Shown here in pieces: positions 10,020-24,845 of a stretch of 24,845 bases of DNA. Each line of letters begins with the position of its first letter. Position 1 is the first letter of the stretch. The stretch is from Fistulifera solaris (lineage: Eukaryota), in contig AP026129.1 in NCBI GenBank assembly GCA_030295235.1, forward strand, positions 1,364,001 to 1,388,845, read 5' to 3'. The notes below the pieces were generated by a model, which saw only the letters and a program-made list of their open reading frames with translations, was not told the DNA's origin and did not search any database. A program made the position numbers and the translations under genes.

Positions 10020-13000
10020 ATGTCCCAGTGCAGTGTGTGTGCCACTCCGAAAAATAAGCAGCATGAAGTAAGAGGATTTTTGCCTTCGGCGCTTCTTGGC
10101 AAGCTTGTTGGGTCTTGCAGCTTGCATCTGATGCCAATATTCATTCCAATTCAGTGGGGCTCCTGGTGTTTCAAAGGAATGATTATCATTGACCGTTCAT
10201 CATCTTCTATCATCTCAGAAATTTGGTAGCTTCGCTTCAAAATCCTATCTGAGAGCTATATTCATTGATATTTGTTTGTAAGGGCTTCTTCTTTGCGTTT
10301 ATCGTCATCATGGTGAAGTCGTCTACTTCAAAGAAGTTAAAGGATGATGGCGTGAAGACTACCTGGATCAAGACAGAGGAAGCCAGTTTGGATATCGATA
10401 CTCTTGTCCATTCACGGTTTTCGCGGAAGATAGGTGCCATAGATGCGGAATACATAATAGAGAAATCAGTGGCTTGCTCATGCAGTGTGGAAAGTGCAAA
10501 AGGCATATTACTGCAGCATGAAATGCTTTAACGATGATTTATCCTGGCATCAGCAGTTCTGCCAAACCTCTCGTATCGACTCGCCCCCCTCGCTGGAAGA
10601 TGCTACAAAGATAAAGGTCAAACTACCTCCGGCGCATCAGCATCGAGCCAATCGGAGAGAATCTTTACAAGATCAAAGCCACGCATCACAAGTTGATTTT
10701 GGCAACAGATGCTAGTGGGCATACGTTTAAGCCAAATCTCGACGATGGGACCATCTTTTAGGTACACAAAAGGAAAGTCCCACGAGAAAAGAGGCACAGT
10801 AGATGGTCACAAGGGCGTTCGAAAGCTTTACGGATCAGGCCCTCTTACTCTAACAGTCGACAATGGGAATGGGAAAAAAGTATCGGTTACTGTGGATCCG
10901 GGCGGAAGTAGGTCCTCCGAAAATCAAAATTGAAGAGTTCAGGCCAGGATTGTACAAGATTGTTGCTTTATATCAAGCAGTCGGAAACTTGGAGCCTGGC
11001 TCGTTTTTTACCTATGACAAAGCTTGGAAAGGATTTCATCAGGAAGAAAATAAACACGTTCAGGAACTGGCAGGACAAGGCTACGTTGCATCTGACTGCT
11101 GTGAATGTGGATGGCAAAGAAATGACAATCGAAGTATCACCATCGGATCCAAGTCCACCAAAAATCAAGATACAAAATCTCGGCGAGAATTTGTATAAAC
11201 TGAAAGTCAAAGACCCCGCAGTCTTCCATGGATTGCTCGATATCACGGCCAAGGACAGTGATGGGTGTCCAATCACTCTTCAAAACAACGAAATTTTCAG
11301 CGATGTCGATGCAGGGACCGGTAAAACCCATCAACAACCAGAGGACGATGAGGAACACGGGGTCATACAAAAATTCGAGGCCACGGGAACCTTACAATCA
11401 CCGTCGTCAACTGTTTTGGAAAGGAAGTGAGTGCCTTTGTATCTCCCGGATCTGCTCCTCCACCGTCTCTTCGTTTGGAGTCCTTAAAAGACGGTTACTA
11501 CAAAATCCACGCTAGTGATCCGAATGATGAGCTCTTGACAATTCAAGTTGCGGATCATATTGGAGACACATTTGTACCTGGTCTGAAAAATGAGTCTGTG
11601 TTTTCCTACATGGATGCGGGGGTCGGGTAGCAATCAGCAGACTGCAAATAAACACCCCTCTTATGGCAGTGTGCAGAAATTGAGAGGTCACGGACAACTC
11701 ACCAGCGTCACAAATGCATCCGGAAAGACGGTGCAAGCTTTGGTCGAGCCTGCAGAAGCAACTCCGCCCTGTTGTGAATATTCATGAGTTAGAGAAGTGT
11801 ATCGACTTGAAGTTTCTGATGAGAGCGGTAATCCAGTAACTATCATGGCCGTCGACTCGGAACGTAACACGTTCAATGATGCATTGGCGGACCAATCCAT
11901 TTTTGGTACAAGGAAGCTGGAGAACGTTCTGCTACACAGGAAATTCAAGGAGATAGCATGCACGGTGTGCACAAAAATCCGAGGAAAAGGTGATCTTACC
12001 ATTACTGCAATCAATTCGGCTGGAAAGGAAAGTTCGGTTGTATTGAAGCCCAAGGAAGCGGACCCTCCATCTCTTGAATGGAAGATTTAGGAGACGGTTT
12101 CTATAGAGTAATTGCCAGCGATAGAGATGGTGAGCCTGTCATAGTTAACGCGGCAGATCAAGAAGGTAATGCATTTGCAGTAGAACCTGGGACAATTTTC
12201 CGTTACGAAGTGGCGGCAAGCGCCGATCTTCACAAGAATTCGCGAGAGGACGGCAGACTTCGGATTAGTCGAGAAGTTGTTCGGCAGTGGGAACCTCACG
12301 TTCAAGGCAATAAATGTGGCAGGCAAGGAGAGCACTGTTGTCATTCAGCTGACAGAATCAGATCCTCCCTCACTTAATATCAAAGATATAGGGGAAGGTT
12401 TCTTGAAAATAATTGCGGGTGACAGCGATGGCAAGCCTGTTGCAGTTAGGGCGGTAGATGAAGAGGGAAATGCATTTGTAATGCAATCTGGGACAATATT
12501 TAAGCTACGAAGAGGCCGGTAAGCGTACTGCTTCACAAGGCCAAAGCAATGACCAAAGATTGACACCGTGGAGAAAATGTGTGGACGTGGAAGTTTGACT
12601 ATCACAGCAGTGAATTAGGCAGGCAAGGAAACTTCAGTTGTAATAAAGGCGACCGAGCCGGATCCACCATCCCTAAGACTTGAAGATATCGGAGAAGGGT
12701 TCCGCAAAATAATCGTCAGTGACAAGGATGGTGGAAATATAGTCGTTATCGCCCTATGATAGTCAGAATGCGAGTTTACAGCAAAGCCTGGTATGATTTT
12801 TTGCTATCTCGGGACGGCGATTCCGGGCAAACGTACCAGCAAGACGTTAATCACAGCGATGTCAGCAATTTGTATGGAAAAGGTGAACTGACGTTCACGG
12901 CGACTAGCGATTCAGGCAAGCAGGCTACAGCGAAAATCCAAGCAACTCATTCGGACGAGCCAAGCGTTGAACTTGTAGAGGTGGGATCGGGTGCGTTTAG

Positions 13001-13577
13001 GATCGATGCCATCGACCCTAATGGCGATCCCATAACGGTACACGCCCGAAGATGCCAATGGTGATTCTATCGCTACAATCCCCGTTAAATCAACATTCCG
13101 TTATTCAGATGTCGGACCCGAATACAGTAAGAAAGAGCGGCAACGTGTATGATTTTCAGATGCCTGAGCTGTGGATCACTTGCTACAATAAGGCTGGGAA
13201 GAAGACAAAACTAAGGATAAAGGCGCCGGAAAGAAGCACGAGCAAGAACCCAGCTCGCCTAAGCCTCCCACAGTTAGTTCCAATCAGTCTTCTGGCTCAG
13301 GGCGAGCCAGACTTCGCCATCCAAGAGAAAAAAGAGAATATTAACACGTGAAGTTCGTGACAAACTAATATTCTGGTACGGTCGTCTTGGCTACCCAACC
13401 CGCGACGAGATGATTAAGAAAGTAGCCCGCTTGCCTGAGTCGTGCGGAATAAGAGCAGAAGATGTCGATCTTTTGCCATGGATAATGAATGGGAGAATGA
13501 TAAGGACAAAAGACTTGCATGACAAAGTTCTGGAAAATACAACAGTTTATATTGAAAAGGAAGTCAACAGCGATTGA
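10020..13577 (+). CDS. Large MYND-zinc-finger protein with tandem ~100-aa beta-rich repeats and a C-terminal WYGRLGYP..EDVDLLPW segment; many frameshifts; start uncertain (ATG 10020 or 10310)
   Basis: MSQCSVC begins at 10020 and is followed by a GTAAG donor at 10068. LMQCGKCK/AYYCSMKCFNDDLSWHQQFC is read across a frameshift at ~10480-10563. Successive short ORFs contain the same repeat unit. The last frame reads KLIFWYGRLGYPTRDEMIKKVARLPESCGIRAEDVDLLPW...EVNSD and stops at 13575-13577. Confidence 0.6.
10829..13225 (+). repeat. Coding tandem repeat with a ~300-bp period, 8 units plus a partial one
   Basis: The motif G.G.LT.TA.N..GK...V.I.P...PPSL.IEDLG.G.Y.I.A.D.DG.PV.I.A.D recurs near 10829, 11073, 11377, 11683, 11980, 12280, 12580, 12873 and 13163 (partial). 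Confidence 0.8.
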
Positions 13578-15927: not shown

Positions 15928-16164
15928 CCTGCAAATGAATTCGTACATTGTCCAAAAGAGATCATTTGATACCTGCGTAGGGTGTCACATGTCATTTCTT
16001 GTGTTGCTTTTTTCTCCAAATGAGTTCCAAAATCCAGATCAATATTTCAGCACATGTAACAGAAATCAAGAATTAGACTAACGCTGAAATTCAACGATAA
16101 AGATATGAATATCAACAGTGTGGCCTGGGAACGAAACTTGATTATGATATGCGCATGATTAAGA

Positions 16165-16375
16165 GCTGATTTCATCGTTTTTAGAAGTTTTTCTTTGTCT
16201 CATGCGCTGAAAACCTGCTGATGAGTCTGAGGGAATAAAATCACATCAACGTTTCAAGTAAAGGAATTTAGTGCTGATTTCATCGTTCTTAATAGTTTTT
16301 CTTTGTCTCATGCGATGAAATCCTGCTGATGAGCCTGGGGGATTGAAATCACGTTAACGTTTAACGTAAAGGAAT
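16165..16375. repeat. Two-unit tandem repeat with a 108-bp period, self-complementary, containing CTGATGAG
   Basis: Units 16165-16267 and 16273-16375 align without gaps (GCTGATTTCATCGTT...CCTGCTGATGAG...AAATCAC...GTAAAGGAAT). Confidence 0.9.
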
Positions 16376-17482: not shown

Positions 17483-18547
17483 TTACTTTTGTTCCTGCAT
17501 GACGTGAAGGCTTCAATCTTGCAGCTCCGCCAAAGTGTTCAAGCAGGATCCTCGACCGACGTGGTGGTTGAAGAGTACAATGAATCCAGGGGTATTTGAC
17601 TGCGTGCGACACATCGTCATTGTCGGCCAGTCAATGGCTGAGCTATATTTCCTGTCGAGTCGCGCATTGTGCATCTGACCTTGATTTCCACCGCCGACAA
17701 CAGCCTTGAGGTCTTTGTTCCCCCCGGAAATGGTGGTCTACCAAGGTGGATGCGATGCACTGTAGTTGTGTTGGTAAAACAAATCCTTCCGATGCGAGTT
17801 GCTTCTTGAAGTGACCGGTGGCGAAGAATATTTGATCTTCCTCTTTATGCGGTATGGTCAGCCTTTACCTTGTGCTCGATAGAAGAATATGAGCACGCCC
17901 CTGAACAATAACTGGGATGGTGCCATTGAAATCCTTCAAGATGATTTGCCCTTTCACGCCGAACATTCTCTAGTGGGCTCACTTTCTGATTTCGATCTCG
18001 ACGATTGCAGCTTGGATGGGACTTATGCAGTGTGGTATAAGTACACCACAACATTGCCAGAAGAAATTGTGTATTTTTCCGCGACAACCAGAGACTACAC
18101 ATTCAGCGTGTCCACGTATAATGTCATTGGGGTTCAATCTCCTGTGGATGAATTATTTACATGCGTTGCAGTGGGAAATGAACTTGAAAAATCTGTCTCA
18201 TGGGTTGCGGAAGCGAATATTCCTTATTATATTCTTGTTGGAGACGTCGTTCCGTTTAGCGACAGTATCTTTACGTTGACCTTAGAGTCCGGCGGCGTAC
18301 CAGAAACAAGTGTCCCCGAACCGGTTTCATCTCCGCCTGTTTCGGCACCAGATAAGCAATGAAGGATCAGATTCAGCGACGTCTCTTGCACCCGATTTCA
18401 TTGCGGCCTGTTTCCACACCCGTTACTGATGATTCTTCGCCTGTTGCGGCTCCTACTGCAACGTCAGGAGAAGATTCTGTTGGCTTGCTGGAATCCGCCT
18501 TCAAAACTCAGATGATGGCGTTCCTTTTGTGTGTCATCATTGCGTAA
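17483..18547 (+). pseudogene. Secreted or surface protein with two tandem Cys-containing beta domains, a P/S/T linker and a hydrophobic C-terminus (possible GPI signal); 5' end abuts retroelement copy C; frameshifted
   Basis: Begins with a signal-like LLLFLHDVKA without a Met. Domain 1 fragments: QWLSY..VHLTLIST..VVYQGGCDAL.CVG..EVTGGEEYLIF. Domain 2: PLNNNWDGAIEI..DCSLDGTYAVWYKY..FTCVAVG..VSWVAEANIPYYILVG. Ends MMAFLLCVIIA-stop. Confidence 0.55.
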
Positions 18548-19138
18548 TAAATAATGAGGCGCAAAGAAGAGAATGTTAAGGTTAGGGTCAAGAACGAAGT
18601 ATACTCCCCAGAACCTAACGTAACAAGAATTGGTAATTTATCAATTATTTATGTTTTCCTGCCAATGGAGTGTATAAAAACATTACGGCTCAACAACTGA
18701 GCTCATAACTGCCAACAATAGAAAGGCAGCTACGAACTTGTCCGTGCTTCACCCATCCTATCCATTACCTGTTTCTTGCAATATCCTAATTAACACTGCA
18801 ATAGTTTCGAATTGCGTTAAGTAAAGGTAAACAAAAGGAAGGTAAATAAGCTCCACCTCTAGACCTGTGCTACGTGCTACTAACGATCGCCGTCATCGAA
18901 GATTTCATATTATTTCAACTGCGTTGAATGACGACTGTTTCGTGACCCAACTCGGTCAGACTCAGCAGAAAAATGATAGACGATGCTATACTTCTTTGAA
19001 CGATGAATGCGATGAACGATGATGCGATGATGAGAATCAAAATTGCAAGCTCAACATTTGATGAGTTGCTGATTGTTATTAGAATAGCTTTCATTTCCTT
19101 TTACGTGTCTCATTTTCTGACAAGAAACTCTCGAAAAC

Positions 19139-20127
19139 ATGTCAGTGGCAGCAACTTCGTGCGAAGCCGTCACAACGACGTCGTTCCTTTCGTCGTCTCT
19201 CTTTACGGCACTTGCTTCCCTCTTTGCATTTCCGACTGTCTTCTGGCTCGTTGCGTATTTGATTCCGCAAATCTACATGGCCTTTCGACCCGTTCCTAAT
19301 TTGAAAAGAAATACGCCGCCGAATGGGCTTTGGTAACGGGCGGAGGCAGTGGAATTGGGAAAGCATTGTGCTTCGCACTCGCACAACAAGGATTAAATGT
19401 CGTTGTCGTTTCCTTAGATGATGATTTTCTCAAAACAACGATGCAAGAACTAAAGCAACAATTTCCGAAGCAAGAATTTCGTTCGGTAGGAGTCAATTTC
19501 GCACCCGGTGTTAAATACATGGATGCTATTATCAAGGCCACAAAAGATATTCACATCCCCATCGTTTTTTGCAATGCTGGGTTCATGGTGACGGGCTTTC
19601 TCGATCAAGCTCCCATTGAAAAGCTACTCGCCAATATTGAATGCAACGCCACTTCTGCCGTCAATGTGTCGCATCATTTTGTCAAAATACTGGTGCAGAA
19701 CAAACAAAAAGGTTGTATTGTCTTTCACGAGCAGTGTCGCTGGATTCATTCCGACACCTTTCAGCGGCCATGTACGCCAGTACCAAAGCCTTTGTGTCAC
19801 AATTTGCCGCTTGCTTGCACATTGAAGTCAAGCCGCTCGGTATTGATGTGTGTGCGATTCATCCGTCACCAGTAGCTTCCAACTTTTATCACAAACTCGA
19901 TCACAAGGTCGATATGATTGAAGCGGCGGCGAAATCGGCCGTTACGCCGGAAAGTGTCACCAATGACATGTTGCGGAGTATTGGGCCTTGTGCGTTGCGA
20001 GATATGGGTGGATTGGCGTGGGGAACACGCATGGGGACGTTCTTTTGCCCTATAACTTCTTTGCGGAAGTCTTTGCGTTCTTTGCACCTTTTTGCCTGAT
20101 TGGAAGACGCACAATCAGCATCGTTGA
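19139..20127 (+). CDS. Membrane-anchored short-chain dehydrogenase/reductase, 17beta-HSD3/12 or very-long-chain 3-ketoacyl-CoA reductase-like; several frameshifts
   Basis: N-terminal hydrophobic anchor, WALVTGGGSGIGKA, CNAG, SSVAG, the YxxxK motif MYASTKAFV and HPSPVASN. Ends LPDWKTHNQHR-TGA at 20125-20127. Confidence 0.85.
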
Positions 20128-20330
20128 TCGAGGACGAAATGAATGAAACAATGAGATTGTGGGAGAATGGCGTATCAAATTATGAAATAGTTACCGCTGT
20201 AGTGGTATAAACACGTGACTCATTAATTATTGCTGACTACCTGAGAAAACTGTTTGCGATGTCAAAAATGTGTATCAATGTAGAATCAAAAGCAATTTGC
20301 AAACAAATGAACAAAAACGTAAACTTGCGC

Positions 20331-23300
20331 CTAATAACTGCCCTGTGGCTGGAACGTCGTTGCGGTGGACTCTTCACCCAGCATCGTGGAAAGGGCTTGA
20401 ATCACTAACGGATCTGCAGCGTACATGCGAATCCGTTCACTGGTTACCGGCATCCGCATTTCAAAATACTGGTCGTCGTTCAGATTTGATTTGCGTGCGA
20501 CAGTCAAAGCATCCTTAATGGCGTAAAAGACCTGTGGAAAAAGAACAAACGTTTCAGCAAGCGGAGTGTCAAAAAATCAACAAACGGCCAACTATCCTGA
20601 ACTCACGGATGTTCCCAAAACAAATGGCGGTTCACCGACTGCTTTGCTGCTGTGAACCGCAAACGGATATCAACATTCTCGAGAAGCGAAACATTGAAAA
20701 CTTCTGGAACATCATTGAAGGCAGGTATCTTGTAGGTTCCGGGTCCGGCTGTAAATACGGTACCCCGAGGACCACACCACGTATGGTCGTCGTCCGAGTA
20801 AATGACTTCTTCCATCGTACTCCAACCCATTCCCTGAATAAATGCACCTTCAATCTGGCCGATATCGATGGCTGGGTTGATACTAGATCCGACGTCCACC
20901 AGCACATCAGCGCGAAGCGTTTGTAGTTACCAGTCAGTAGGTCGAGTTCTACTTCTGCACAAGCAACGCCTTGCGTGAAACTGTTAACAAGCAGAAAACA
21001 ATTTGAGATGATCAAATCGAAAGGAGAACAAGTATCCGTGGTCTTCTTCTACTTACTAGTTGAAGGGATGCCCTTTCCACGAGTTCTCGGGTGCGTCTTC
21101 AGGAAAGTCCTCGGGCTTGTTTTTGGTCCAATCAAACCCACATCTACTAGTGTCAAGCGCGAAGAAACCGTGAGCGGAAAGATCGATCCTTTCCATGTGA
21201 GCAGCCAAAGCAACTTCTTTGAGCGTTGCGTCAGGACCAAGCTTATCCTGAATGGGTTTAATTCGTGCAATAATCTGGCGACAAGCGTCCAAGGTTGCCA
21301 TGCCGTACATGTCTGTCGACATGGACGCCGCAGTAGGAATAGCATTTGGAACTTTGTCGCTGCTGCTATCATTCGTAGACATTTTCCAGCGGTATTCCAA
21401 AAGCTTGTGCCGCGACTTGACAGACCTTCGTGTGAAGACCTTGTCCCATTTCCGTTCCTCCGTGACTCACTAAGACAGTACCGTCTGTATACAAGTGAAC
21501 TAACGCCCCTCCCTGGTTCATGAACTTCGCAGTAAACGCGATTCCGAATTTCGTTGGCAACACGGCAAGTCCGCGCTTGACCCATTTGTGTTTGGCATTA
21601 AAAGCGTCGATTTCCTTGCGACGTTCAACGACGTTTGTTCCCTAAAAATCCGATCCCACATGGATGGCACATTCCATTTTCCGAGAATTGTTCTCCAATT
21701 ATCATGCCAAAATGCATGTGTTGACCAATTTCATAGAAGTTATCTTTGCGTATCTTGTCGCCGGGGTACTTTGCATGCTGTCGCAAGGTGGTCGATCACA
21801 TGTTCAGCAACAACCTGAAGAAGATGGCAATCAAGGTTGAGTTAAAAAAATTAACGCTGCGACATCAAGTTAAACACAGTTTCTTACCATGCCTTGGGGA
21901 CCCTATATTTGAAAATAGCATTTGGAGAAAATTGAGAAATGATATTGTGTAAGACAGTAACAGCAGAAGGTCAACGTATTTACTACTTACCCCAAAGCCT
22001 CGAAATGCTGTGTGGGGCGGCTGAACGGTCTTGCAAGGTACACCCTCAATCCTAAAGCGCGATAGATGTGTGAGTGACGAAAAATAAGAAAACAGTAATT
22101 TCGAATACAAAGTATGATCTCACCTGAAATTGGGATAGTAATAGCATCCGTCTACGTGAAGAGAGCTCGATCCATCACTGGACTGGATAAGTCCAAGCCG
22201 ACCAGCATTGTTGAATAGTTTCGCATCAAAAGCGACAAGCTTTACACCAGTCTCCGTAACTTCGGCGCTGGCTGAGTAATAGGTAATAAAACAGTGACGA
22301 GTGCCTGTCGTCTCTGTCAACAAGGGAACACAGTTGAGTGAGCGGTGTGAATATCGCGAACTTTATTCATATTGCACTTACTCATGTCAACGTCACGTCC
22401 TAATGTCAAGCGAACAGGTCGATTGGATACCTTGGCTGCGACAGCCGCAGCGCAAGAAGCAAAGACGCTCCTCGTTTCCTTTCCTCCAAAGCCGCCACCC
22501 ATGCGCTTCATACGTACTACGACCTTATTGGCTGGCGTGCCAGTTGCGGATGCAGCGAACATTTGTGTTTTATTGGTTGCTTGGGTGGAGCAATAAATCG
22601 TCAAATCATTTTCCGAGGGGATGCACAAACTACAGTTAGTTTCCAAATAAAAATGCTCCTGGGCACCCGACTTGAAAACACCCGAAACTTTAACAATGTC
22701 TCCGACCTTCGGTTCCCCTTTGAAATCCTCTGTGGTGGCCAAACTGTTAAGAACGGTTATATCACCACGTTCAAGTCCGTGACGTCCAATTTCGTAAAAA
22801 CTTCCCGCTTCAATCGCATCTTCAATAGAAACGATTATCTTCTTAGAACCAGCCGCGCCGTATTCAATCTTGCAACTACGGGCACCCAGTTCAGCACTAT
22901 CCAGAGTTTCGGCGACGACGATAGCGAGAACCTGCCCGACCATTCGGATCTCTTCACCCGGCGGAAGGAATACGGTTTCATCCTTGACGACCGGGCCATA
23001 CTCGTTCTTTCCGCCAATTTTGATCAAGTCATCGTAGCCATACACCGCTACAACACCAGGTGTCGAAAGTGCAGGAGCAGCATCCAAAGACTCAAATGTC
23101 ACCCCGCATTGCTTCGCTTGGACCAAATACGCTTGTAGAGAACCCGGGAGGAAGTGGGATATCATCAACGTACACGGCTTCTCCCGTGCAATGAAGAGGG
23201 CCCGACGTAATGCGTGGCCGCTTTGCCCACTTCACCCGCCATTCTTGTTGATTCACTACCCAAGTCCACCCGAGGGCAAGCTTTTATCTTCGAGACCACT

Positions 23301-24763
23301 GGCCACTTTCGGAGCAGGATACGTTTGAACTCCGTGAAATTGGGGCTTTGGTTCATTCAAAAACGTCTTGGCACCACTCCTTTCCTGATCCTCTAAAGTC
23401 GGGGCTGCCGGCACATCGCCAACCAATGCCAACAACGAAGAATCTTCCTTAATCTTTTGTATGTCGGTCTGCAATTCCTCGGCGCACTGCAAGTAGAACT
23501 TGTAGAGAAAGGACGCCGCAAGTGACATGCGAAACGCTGCTTGACCACCGGGGACATTCGGTGGGAGCTTGAGCTCGTTCAATAACGTCTCCCGCGCGAC
23601 ATCGAACGTCGCGGCACAAAGAATCGGCACCGATCAACACAGCAGCCGTTTGACTCGCCATGACGGTCGCGGGAGCCATGCCTCAAACGCCAATGCCGCG
23701 TCTTCAATTTTGTACTTTCCACTTTGAACCTGTAACTTGATGCGCATCGATGCGGTGACAATACTTATGTCATCTTCGCGACAGCGCGCCTGCTTGAATA
23801 GCTTGTAGTACTCCAAAAAGGAGCCATCAAAGGAATCTCGACAGCTCCACAATTTCATTGGGTTTTAAATCGACCGTACGGTATTTTAGGAAGAATTCGG
23901 ACACCCAAATCGTTCGACGCTGAATACTTTCGTCGTCGTCACTGAGCGACGTCAATACGAGTGTCGCACCACTCGCCGCTAGCATCGGGTTCATGTCGGA
24001 AATGGGACTCGCCGTGACCAAGTTTCCTCCCAAACAGGCGACATTGCGAATTTGCGTGGAGGCAAACCATCGGAGCATGTCATGAATGGGCAAAGTCGTA
24101 CGCAACAGACGATCTTGTTGCGACCATTCGTGACATTTCTGTTGAATCGTACTCAACGGAGAACCGCGATCCGATCATCAAACAATTGTCAGCGACTTCC
24201 AATCCGTAGACTTCCGTAATTCGATCCGAAGGACTCACCAACCAGCGGATACCACGGCCTGCTTGAATTCCGTTTCAATGCCCGCCGGTATTTCCGACCA
24301 CAATTTTGCATCCACCCGCAAATTCTTTTAGCAGTGAAAGCAGTTCCAAGAATGTGGTCGGCTTGAACCATGTTCCACCGGCATGATATTCCGTTGTATC
24401 GACGACCATGAGGGATTGTGCCAATTCTTCCGATTCCTCGTTTAACAACTCTGCGGGAAACATTTGATTGGCTTGTTGACTCCATTCGTCCTTGTGTTTC
24501 AGAAAGGTCTCTTGATACACTTGTTGTTTGTCTGTCGACGAGGAGGAACAGCACTTGTCGTTGACATTGCATTCCTGTTGACAAGTGTCGCGTTAGGGAC
24601 ATTCCCGACCGCGGTGTCCCACACGGTCCTGTTACTTCGATAAGTCGCTGCTTGACCGCGCCGCATCCCAAATGGGACGATATCCGGTACAACGACACAA
24701 ATTTCCATCCAAATGTTCTTCCAAATAGTCCATGGAAGGATGATTTGTGAGCAAAGTATAAAT
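20331..24763 (-). pseudogene. XDH: Xanthine dehydrogenase/oxidase, 5'-truncated by the telomere; six introns; many 1-bp indels
   Basis: Starts abruptly [37 protein letters not shown] domain: KIVVGNT, WFASTQIRNVACLGGNLVTASPISD. Moco domain: [73 protein letters not shown]. Ends FQPQGSY-TAG at 20331. GT-AG introns at 20532-20606, 20981-21056, 21815-21887, 21903-21990, 22052-22123 and 22314-22381. Confidence 0.93.
21888..21902 (-). other. 15-nt micro-exon of XDH encoding GPQGM
   Basis: The reverse strand reads ..TTT GGG|gtaagt..atag|GGT CCC CAA GGC ATG|gtaaga..ttcag|GTT GTT GCT GAA. Splicing restores AFRGFG-GPQGM-VVAEH. Confidence 0.85.
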
Positions 24764-24845
24764 GGGTTAGGGTTAGGGTTAGGGTTAGGGTTAGGGTTAG
24801 GGTTAGGGTTAGGGTTAGGGTTAGGGTTAGGGTTAGGGTTAGGGT
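24764..24845 (+). repeat. Telomeric repeat (GGGTTA)n, 82 bp, running to the end of the window
   Basis: Perfect TTAGGG array with the G-rich strand running 5'->3' toward the end, the orientation expected for a right chromosome end. Confidence 0.97.

Follow-up and report, generated by a model that had tools for sequence, protein, structure and literature searches.

Telomere repeats joined directly to a xanthine dehydrogenase exon at a contig end of the diatom Fistulifera solaris: a probable case of chromosome healing

Introduction

At one contig end of Fistulifera solaris, telomere repeats stand directly against the coding sequence of a xanthine dehydrogenase (XDH) gene. Is this a real chromosome end, at which telomere repeats were added within an exon, or a product of the assembly, and what has become of the gene? 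F. solaris has an allodiploid genome, made up of two subgenomes. That terminal deletions can be healed by the de novo addition of a telomere is a classic finding, with textbook cases in yeast, Plasmodium, and human alpha-thalassaemia. For this contig end, an earlier reading made from the letters only (hereafter, the sequence-only reading) had proposed a terminal deletion or fragmentation healed by telomerase. Here, we examined the whole stretch of 24,845 nucleotides that carries this end (hereafter, the window), the remnant of the gene in it, and the homoeologous copy.

Materials and methods

The region 18000–24795 of the window was compared with the Logan contigs of four runs (X1–X4). The zone 24757–24795 was skipped in this comparison ('reads seem cut there'), and loose ends in that zone may have been dropped. 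Two X1 contigs run over the ends of the compared stretch, the end in question being unspecified. X1 is a 2015 run, whose contigs covered all 30 bins, including the intergenic DNA, and had no intron-like joints. It carries the present copy and a second copy, about 90–95% alike, at similar depth. Based on the intergenic coverage, the lack of intron-like joints, and the similar depth of both copies, X1 was judged to be DNA. X3 and X4 were judged to be RNA from intron-like joints only; the joints of this type are at 22313–22382, 22050–22123, and 20979–21057. X2 is a wetland metagenome.

Results

The telomere tract and the junction

The features around the junction are listed in Table 1. According to Tandem Repeats Finder, the terminal tract is 82 bases long, with a period of 6, 100% matches, and no indels, and none of the 21 rows given by this program for the window is a second telomere-like array. 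Outside the tract, lone hexamers occur in the window five times as TTAGGG and four times as CCCTAA, and they are never doubled. The G-rich strand of the tract runs 5′ to 3′ up to the final base of the source, as it does at true chromosome ends, and this base would be the physical end of the molecule. The telomere repeat of F. solaris is CCCTAA, and such repeats are present at 82 of 88 termini, according to the accessible part of a preprint (10.1101/2021.11.10.468027).

Table 1. Positions of the features at and near the contig end (numbering of the window)
Feature	Position	Strand	Remarks
Short-chain dehydrogenase gene, convergent with XDH	19300..20099	+	Three frames in the window
5′-truncated xanthine dehydrogenase/oxidase	20331..24763	-	1327 codons and about 5 introns; stop at 20331-20333
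Low-quality consensus zone	18000..24763		46 small indels relative to X1 contigs (12 listed)
Remnant of the second [2Fe-2S] domain	24644..24763	-	Only the C-R-C pair of Fe/S-I remains
In-frame ATG nearest to the junction, 10 codons in	24731..24733	-	Start of P0002
Junction between the unique coding sequence and the telomere repeat	24763..24764		Window sequence
Telomere tract	24764..24845	+	Perfect (GGGTTA)13.7, running off the end of the source

Two features of the boundary are clear from the window sequence. One is that neither degenerate nor subtelomeric repeats lie between the tract and the XDH exon; likewise, no subtelomeric repeat family was found in the remaining ~20 kb of the window, where ordinary genes reach the end. 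Another is that the tract directly adjoins the codons I-Y-T-L-L of the minus-strand XDH, in whose reading frame the letters of the telomere repeat contribute a stop codon and a Pro. Both features had been described in the sequence-only reading: Tandem Repeats Finder and the sequence confirmed perfect GGGTTA repeats from 24764 with neither degenerate repeats nor a subtelomere, and the direct contact with the I-Y-T-L-L codons was verified in the minus-strand frame. As for other diatoms, statements on subtelomeres were not found in PMC8147415.

At the junction, the homoeolog contig reads ...TATAAATGCTCAC, as compared with ...TATAAATGGGTTA in the window. In the homoeolog, Ile is preceded by AGC (Ser), which reads GCT on the plus strand. 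Had the present copy carried AGC there as well, the first G of the tract (24764) could be genomic. Since the homoeolog has AGC there, at most one G of the tract, not GG, would be genomic, and the idea that GG served as a 2-nt seed is not supported: AGC shares only one G with the tract. The homology with the repeat at the junction that can be deduced from the homoeolog is 0–1 nt, which neither helps nor hurts the healing explanation. An exact search with the 28-base junction gave no matches. When metagenome contigs were searched with the homoeolog protein (P0122, see below) for related loci, 126 pattern matches were obtained, and none was confirmed.

The truncated gene

Once the indels of the window are corrected, the remnant is P0002 (GAX26192.1), an uninterrupted protein of 1317 aa annotated on a 440,184-base contig. 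A 304-aa exon of the window is 100% identical to P0002 over 84% of the exon length. GAX26192.1 is wrongly named 'putative selenate reductase molybdopterin-binding subunit' in public records; it is a 5′-truncated XDH.

The full-length counterpart is P0122 (GAX25170.1, 'xanthine dehydrogenase/oxidase [Fistulifera solaris]'), a protein of 1474 aa that is encoded on another contig and belongs to the same 90% cluster as P0002. The two proteins are 93.6% identical over the shared columns of the first ~780 residues, and P0122 is the full-length homoeolog from the other subgenome. Its landmarks are CAEGGCGAC at residue 70, QCGFC at 139, IYTLL at 151 (in the context ...GIIVSIYTLLT), and CRC at 173. The XDH of the window begins at I151 of P0122, so that 150 N-terminal residues are absent. 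The break, previously estimated to lie ~120 aa into the protein, is thus located after residue 150 of the homoeolog.

The break lies inside a coding exon: the promoter, the start codon, the four Fe/S-II cysteines, and the QCGFC pair are gone, and the CRC pair is kept. This pattern of loss had been pointed out beforehand, and it is supported by both the comparison with P0122 and the Fer2_2 match: the junction-side piece matches this Pfam profile only at positions 38–74 of 75 (E 2.5e-9). The ORF pieces further downstream match FAD_binding_5, CO_deh_flav_C, Ald_Xan_dh_C, MoCoBD_1, and MoCoBD_2; among the eight ORF pieces tested, seven gave Pfam matches (E 7.4e-7 to 1.2e-32). PF00111 (Fer2) is absent from the precomputed domains of P0002. 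As compared with eukaryotic XDH (Fer2, Fer2_2, FAD, and Moco), the remnant shares all the domains from the second half of Fer2_2 to MoCoBD_2, including the whole set from FAD_binding_5 onward, but it has neither the N-terminal Fer2 (PF00111) nor the first half of Fer2_2, and it is not a complete member of the family.

Xanthine oxidoreductases need the Fe/S path that carries electrons from Moco to FAD. The remnant has no Fe/S-II, half of the Fe/S-I ligands, and no promoter of its own; as XDH, it should be inactive, because the Fe/S path from Moco to FAD would be missing.

In the P0002 model, the protein begins with the first Met that follows the junction. The corresponding position is occupied by Thr in P0122, P0003, P0124, and P0101, by Ala in P0004, and by Val in P0008, and among the seven relatives compared, Met was found in this copy alone. 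It may have arisen by chance or may be a new start codon. If the ancestral codon was ACG, the Met codon corresponds to a CpG transition that made ATG.

The homoeolog in the DNA and RNA contigs

Both X1 and X3 have one contig that agrees with the window as far as 24745 and then continues for 255 and 90 further letters, respectively, with CGTCAACAATGTATAAATGCTCACAATGAT. The reverse complement of the CGTCAACAATGTATAAATGCTCACAATGAT run-on encodes I-I-V-S-I-Y-T-L-L-T, and within the 18 bases next to the junction it departs from the window at three sites, all of them synonymous. Another loose end of this X3 contig encodes the P0122 residues L-C-D-D-A-V-K-G-P. Judged from these letters, the run-on contigs are those of the homoeolog, whose DNA and RNA extend into 5′ XDH sequence. 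The comparison listed no contig of the type of the present copy that continues past the junction; as the zone 24757–24795 was skipped, a contig of this copy entering either the telomere or further XDH codons would not have been displayed.

The annotated proteins gave a similar picture. Residues 1–152 of P0122 were searched against proteins of 30–809 aa, and among the 120 matches listed of 7800, no second N-terminus of F. solaris XDH was found; the identity was at most 86% in these 120 matches. Neither an intact model of the P0002 type nor an N-terminal fragment was found among the annotated proteins listed. The annotated F. solaris proteome seems to contain two XDH bodies and one XDH N-terminus.

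In X1, the word depth was 16.5–22.5 for the present copy and 23 for the homoeolog. The similar depth of both copies is as expected for two single-copy chromosomes, with no amplified fragment. At the diagnostic sites 21347, 21378, and 21384, the whole RNA-contig depth of X3 and X4 showed the homoeolog letters, with the reservation that contigs drop rare variants. One X3 contig (21603–21732) has 0 letter differences from the window, so that the remnant, too, may be expressed. The truncation had been regarded as a null allele of purine-nitrogen catabolism on this haplotype, but this was an overstatement: full-length P0122 is present, and RNA contigs cross the break point.

Differences between the two copies were also found outside the coding region. 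Where the short-chain dehydrogenase gene and XDH converge with their 3′ ends (20231–20328), an X1 contig of the homoeolog type skips 96 bases, which is an indel difference between the two subgenomes.

Age of the truncation

Using three outgroups, we counted the changes unique to P0002 and to P0122. The ratios were 15:13 with P0004 and 18:15 and 22:14 with P0008 and P0101, respectively (both over the whole length). Thus, with these three outgroups, no significant excess of the kind expected from pseudogene-like acceleration was observed in P0002. The lack of faster protein change and the uninterrupted 1317-aa model suggest that the truncation is recent relative to the divergence of the subgenomes. 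It is less likely that the remnant is instead still under constraint.

Quality of the consensus near the end

When P0002 was placed on the window, 25 ungapped pieces in all three minus-strand frames were obtained, which cover residues 1–1317 with 88–100% identity. The XDH of the window changes frame about 20 times inside exons, a feature that had been missed in the sequence-only reading. The X1 indels restore the P0002 frame at 24611, 23683, 23621, 23143, 22201, 21763, 21633, and 21373, and several X1 contigs differ from the window by 0 substitutions and 2 gaps. On the evidence of these contigs, the frame breaks of XDH, about 20 in number, are attributable to assembly indels. Pseudogene decay was considered as a cause of the frame breaks and ruled out, since the differences are indels without substitutions and X1 restores the frame of P0002.

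The errors are dense, near 10%, in the patches 24241–24286 and 24595–24611. The second of these patches contains an apparent in-frame TAA and a TTAGGG at 24593; P0002 has C-P-E-R there. By contrast, unbroken ORFs of 575, 1137, and 325 aa occupy the region of 2–10 kb of the window. The quality of the consensus drops toward the contig end, so the terminus itself should be viewed with caution. In the last ~7 kb, the gene calls (XDH and the short-chain dehydrogenase) will be frameshifted.

Neighbouring genes

XDH is the last gene before the contig end. The other genes of the window encode a CBM6 protein, a sulfotransferase-like protein, a CLC channel, quinolinate phosphoribosyltransferase, and a short-chain dehydrogenase. 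The last of these is spread over three frames owing to assembly indels: all the X1 depth there has indels at 19303, 19726, 19763, and 20042.

Two further observations were made in this neighbourhood. One is that the plus-strand region 10854–13064 contains ORFs in different frames with similar repeats of ~100 aa (GxGxFKI/LxAxDxxGxPI-like) and no Pfam match; they are probably one repeat-domain gene split by introns or indels. Another is that a 108-base unit occurs in two tandem copies (86% matches) at 16158–16375, in an AT-richer intergenic stretch.

In the wetland metagenome X2, 35 contigs were found on 18900–24800: 4 at 99% or more, 4 at 95–99%, and 27 at 90–95%. At some places, X2 has two versions, with many letters shared with the F. 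solaris homoeolog. Close relatives of F. solaris are therefore present in the wetland sample.

Discussion

The explanation that we regard as probable is that the XDH gene is really truncated and telomere-capped, by a terminal deletion followed by de novo telomere addition by telomerase. The window would contain a chromosome end of one F. solaris subgenome, whose original tip was lost together with the promoter and the first 150 codons of XDH. TTAGGG repeats would have been added by telomerase straight onto the broken or eroded end within the exon, and the loss would be tolerated since a complete XDH is still present, and transcribed, on the homoeologous chromosome. Two properties expected of a healed end were observed: the repeats are joined directly to unique non-telomeric sequence, and the truncation is evident against an intact homologous locus, represented by P0122 and the run-on homoeolog contig. 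Of the original proposal, the cut within the exon has thus been substantiated with P0122 and P0002, and telomerase is the presumed agent; the loss of the distal piece and the inactivity of the remnant are likewise what we infer from the structure of this end.

P0002 is of particular importance here. The window cannot encode it letter for letter because of the frame changes, which indicates that P0002 was derived from a separate sequence of the locus that is truncated at the same place. The scaffold of P0002 would then be expected to end in telomere repeats, too; the truncated model could also stem from a scaffold that merely stops there.

The possibility that the end is an assembly artefact, in which the real chromosome continues into intact XDH and the terminal kilobases were built from one or a few noisy long reads, one of them chimeric or mis-joined to telomere sequence, must be weighed against this second sequence. 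The 46 indels in 18000–24795 relative to X1 and the frame changes of XDH, as opposed to the clean upstream ORFs, are what one would expect if few long reads underlie this end, so that a chimeric one could do damage, and the junction zone was masked in the contig comparison. However, P0002, which was annotated separately, has its N-terminus cut off at the same block of codons and contains no PF00111, a second XDH N-terminus of F. solaris is not annotated among the 120 listed matches of 7800, and the tract is perfect and correctly oriented. Moreover, the sole X1 contig that diverges from the window near the junction has synonymous differences of the homoeolog type. We thus consider an artefact to be unlikely. 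A mosaic or extra-copy end, present in part of the culture or on a mini-chromosome beside an intact chromosome, has a precedent in this very species: in the accessible part of the preprint, telomere-bearing and telomere-free reads meet at one internal boundary, with an ~8-fold amplified 135-kb fragment (10.1101/2021.11.10.468027). For the XDH end, such a state is very unlikely, given that the X1 depths of the two copies indicate no amplification and that neither an intact model of the P0002 type nor a fragment with the N-terminus appears among the annotated proteins listed.

In the least probable of the explanations considered, no internal break was healed by telomerase; a telomere was captured by recombination, or XDH already was the outermost gene and was slowly eroded from the tip. 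XDH is indeed the last gene, and erosion followed by re-extension would yield an identical junction. Capture, however, should have brought in subtelomeric sequence from the donor end, which is not present, and an internal TTAGGG-like seed was not found: around the TTAGGG at 24593, the window and P0002 differ. Beyond these alternatives, a wider hypothesis extends the healing of a broken end to chromosome ends in general, which would be pruned by telomerase-capped intragenic breaks as a form of homoeolog-buffered loss after hybridisation, with the remnant perhaps being a live, telomere-adjacent neo-gene with FAD and Moco domains and no Fe/S domains. The idea of a live remnant is motivated by the intact frame of 1317 codons, the absence of faster evolution, and the unique Met ten codons past the junction; we hold the hypothesis to be decidedly unlikely.

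If the healing of this end is confirmed in reads, it will provide a base-pair-resolved case of telomere healing within a coding exon of a diatom, a group in which the behaviour of telomerase at breaks has hardly been described. It would also represent a concrete route to the loss of one member of a homoeologous gene pair in a young allopolyploid. Those who work with the genome should keep in mind that GAX26192.1 is a 5′-truncated XDH and that the last several kilobases of the contig are indel-rich.

Among the known cases, the nearest is chromosome 4 (Fso_l) of F. solaris itself. In the accessible part of the preprint, an internal telomere tract with telomere-bearing reads is located at a copy-number boundary, and a 135-kb mini-chromosome was proposed (10.1101/2021.11.10.468027). 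The two cases share the species and the presence of telomere repeats at a non-native position. They differ in that the chromosome 4 case is an amplified fragment beside an intact chromosome, whereas the XDH end has single-copy-like depth and no intact version of it was found; in addition, the chromosome 4 tract has long-read support, whereas the XDH junction is known from the assembly sequence. No description of the XDH truncation was found in the F. solaris literature searched, including the accessible text of this preprint, whose supplements might list it, and in the literature searched, no cases of de novo telomeres in diatoms were found beyond the preprint (10.1101/2021.11.10.468027).

A comparable case is chromosome B05 of the allodiploid Auxenochlorella, for which a putative de novo telomere on a duplicated fragment is reported in the accessible part of the article (PMC12636532). 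Auxenochlorella is, like F. solaris, a clonal oleaginous allodiploid alga, and its telomere-bearing reads map internally at a coverage step. It differs in being a green alga, in the duplication of the fragment, and in that no gene truncation is described in that part of the article (PMC12636532).

The XDH end is most likely an ordinary healed chromosome end, that is, an event of a known kind. With the classic healed ends, it shares the repeats placed directly on unique truncated sequence and the absence of a subtelomere, and it presumably shares the homology of zero to a few nucleotides at the junction and the loss of the distal segment. It differs from them in that it occurs in a diatom, that telomerase is here the presumed agent, and that the truncated gene is a housekeeping gene backed by its homoeolog.
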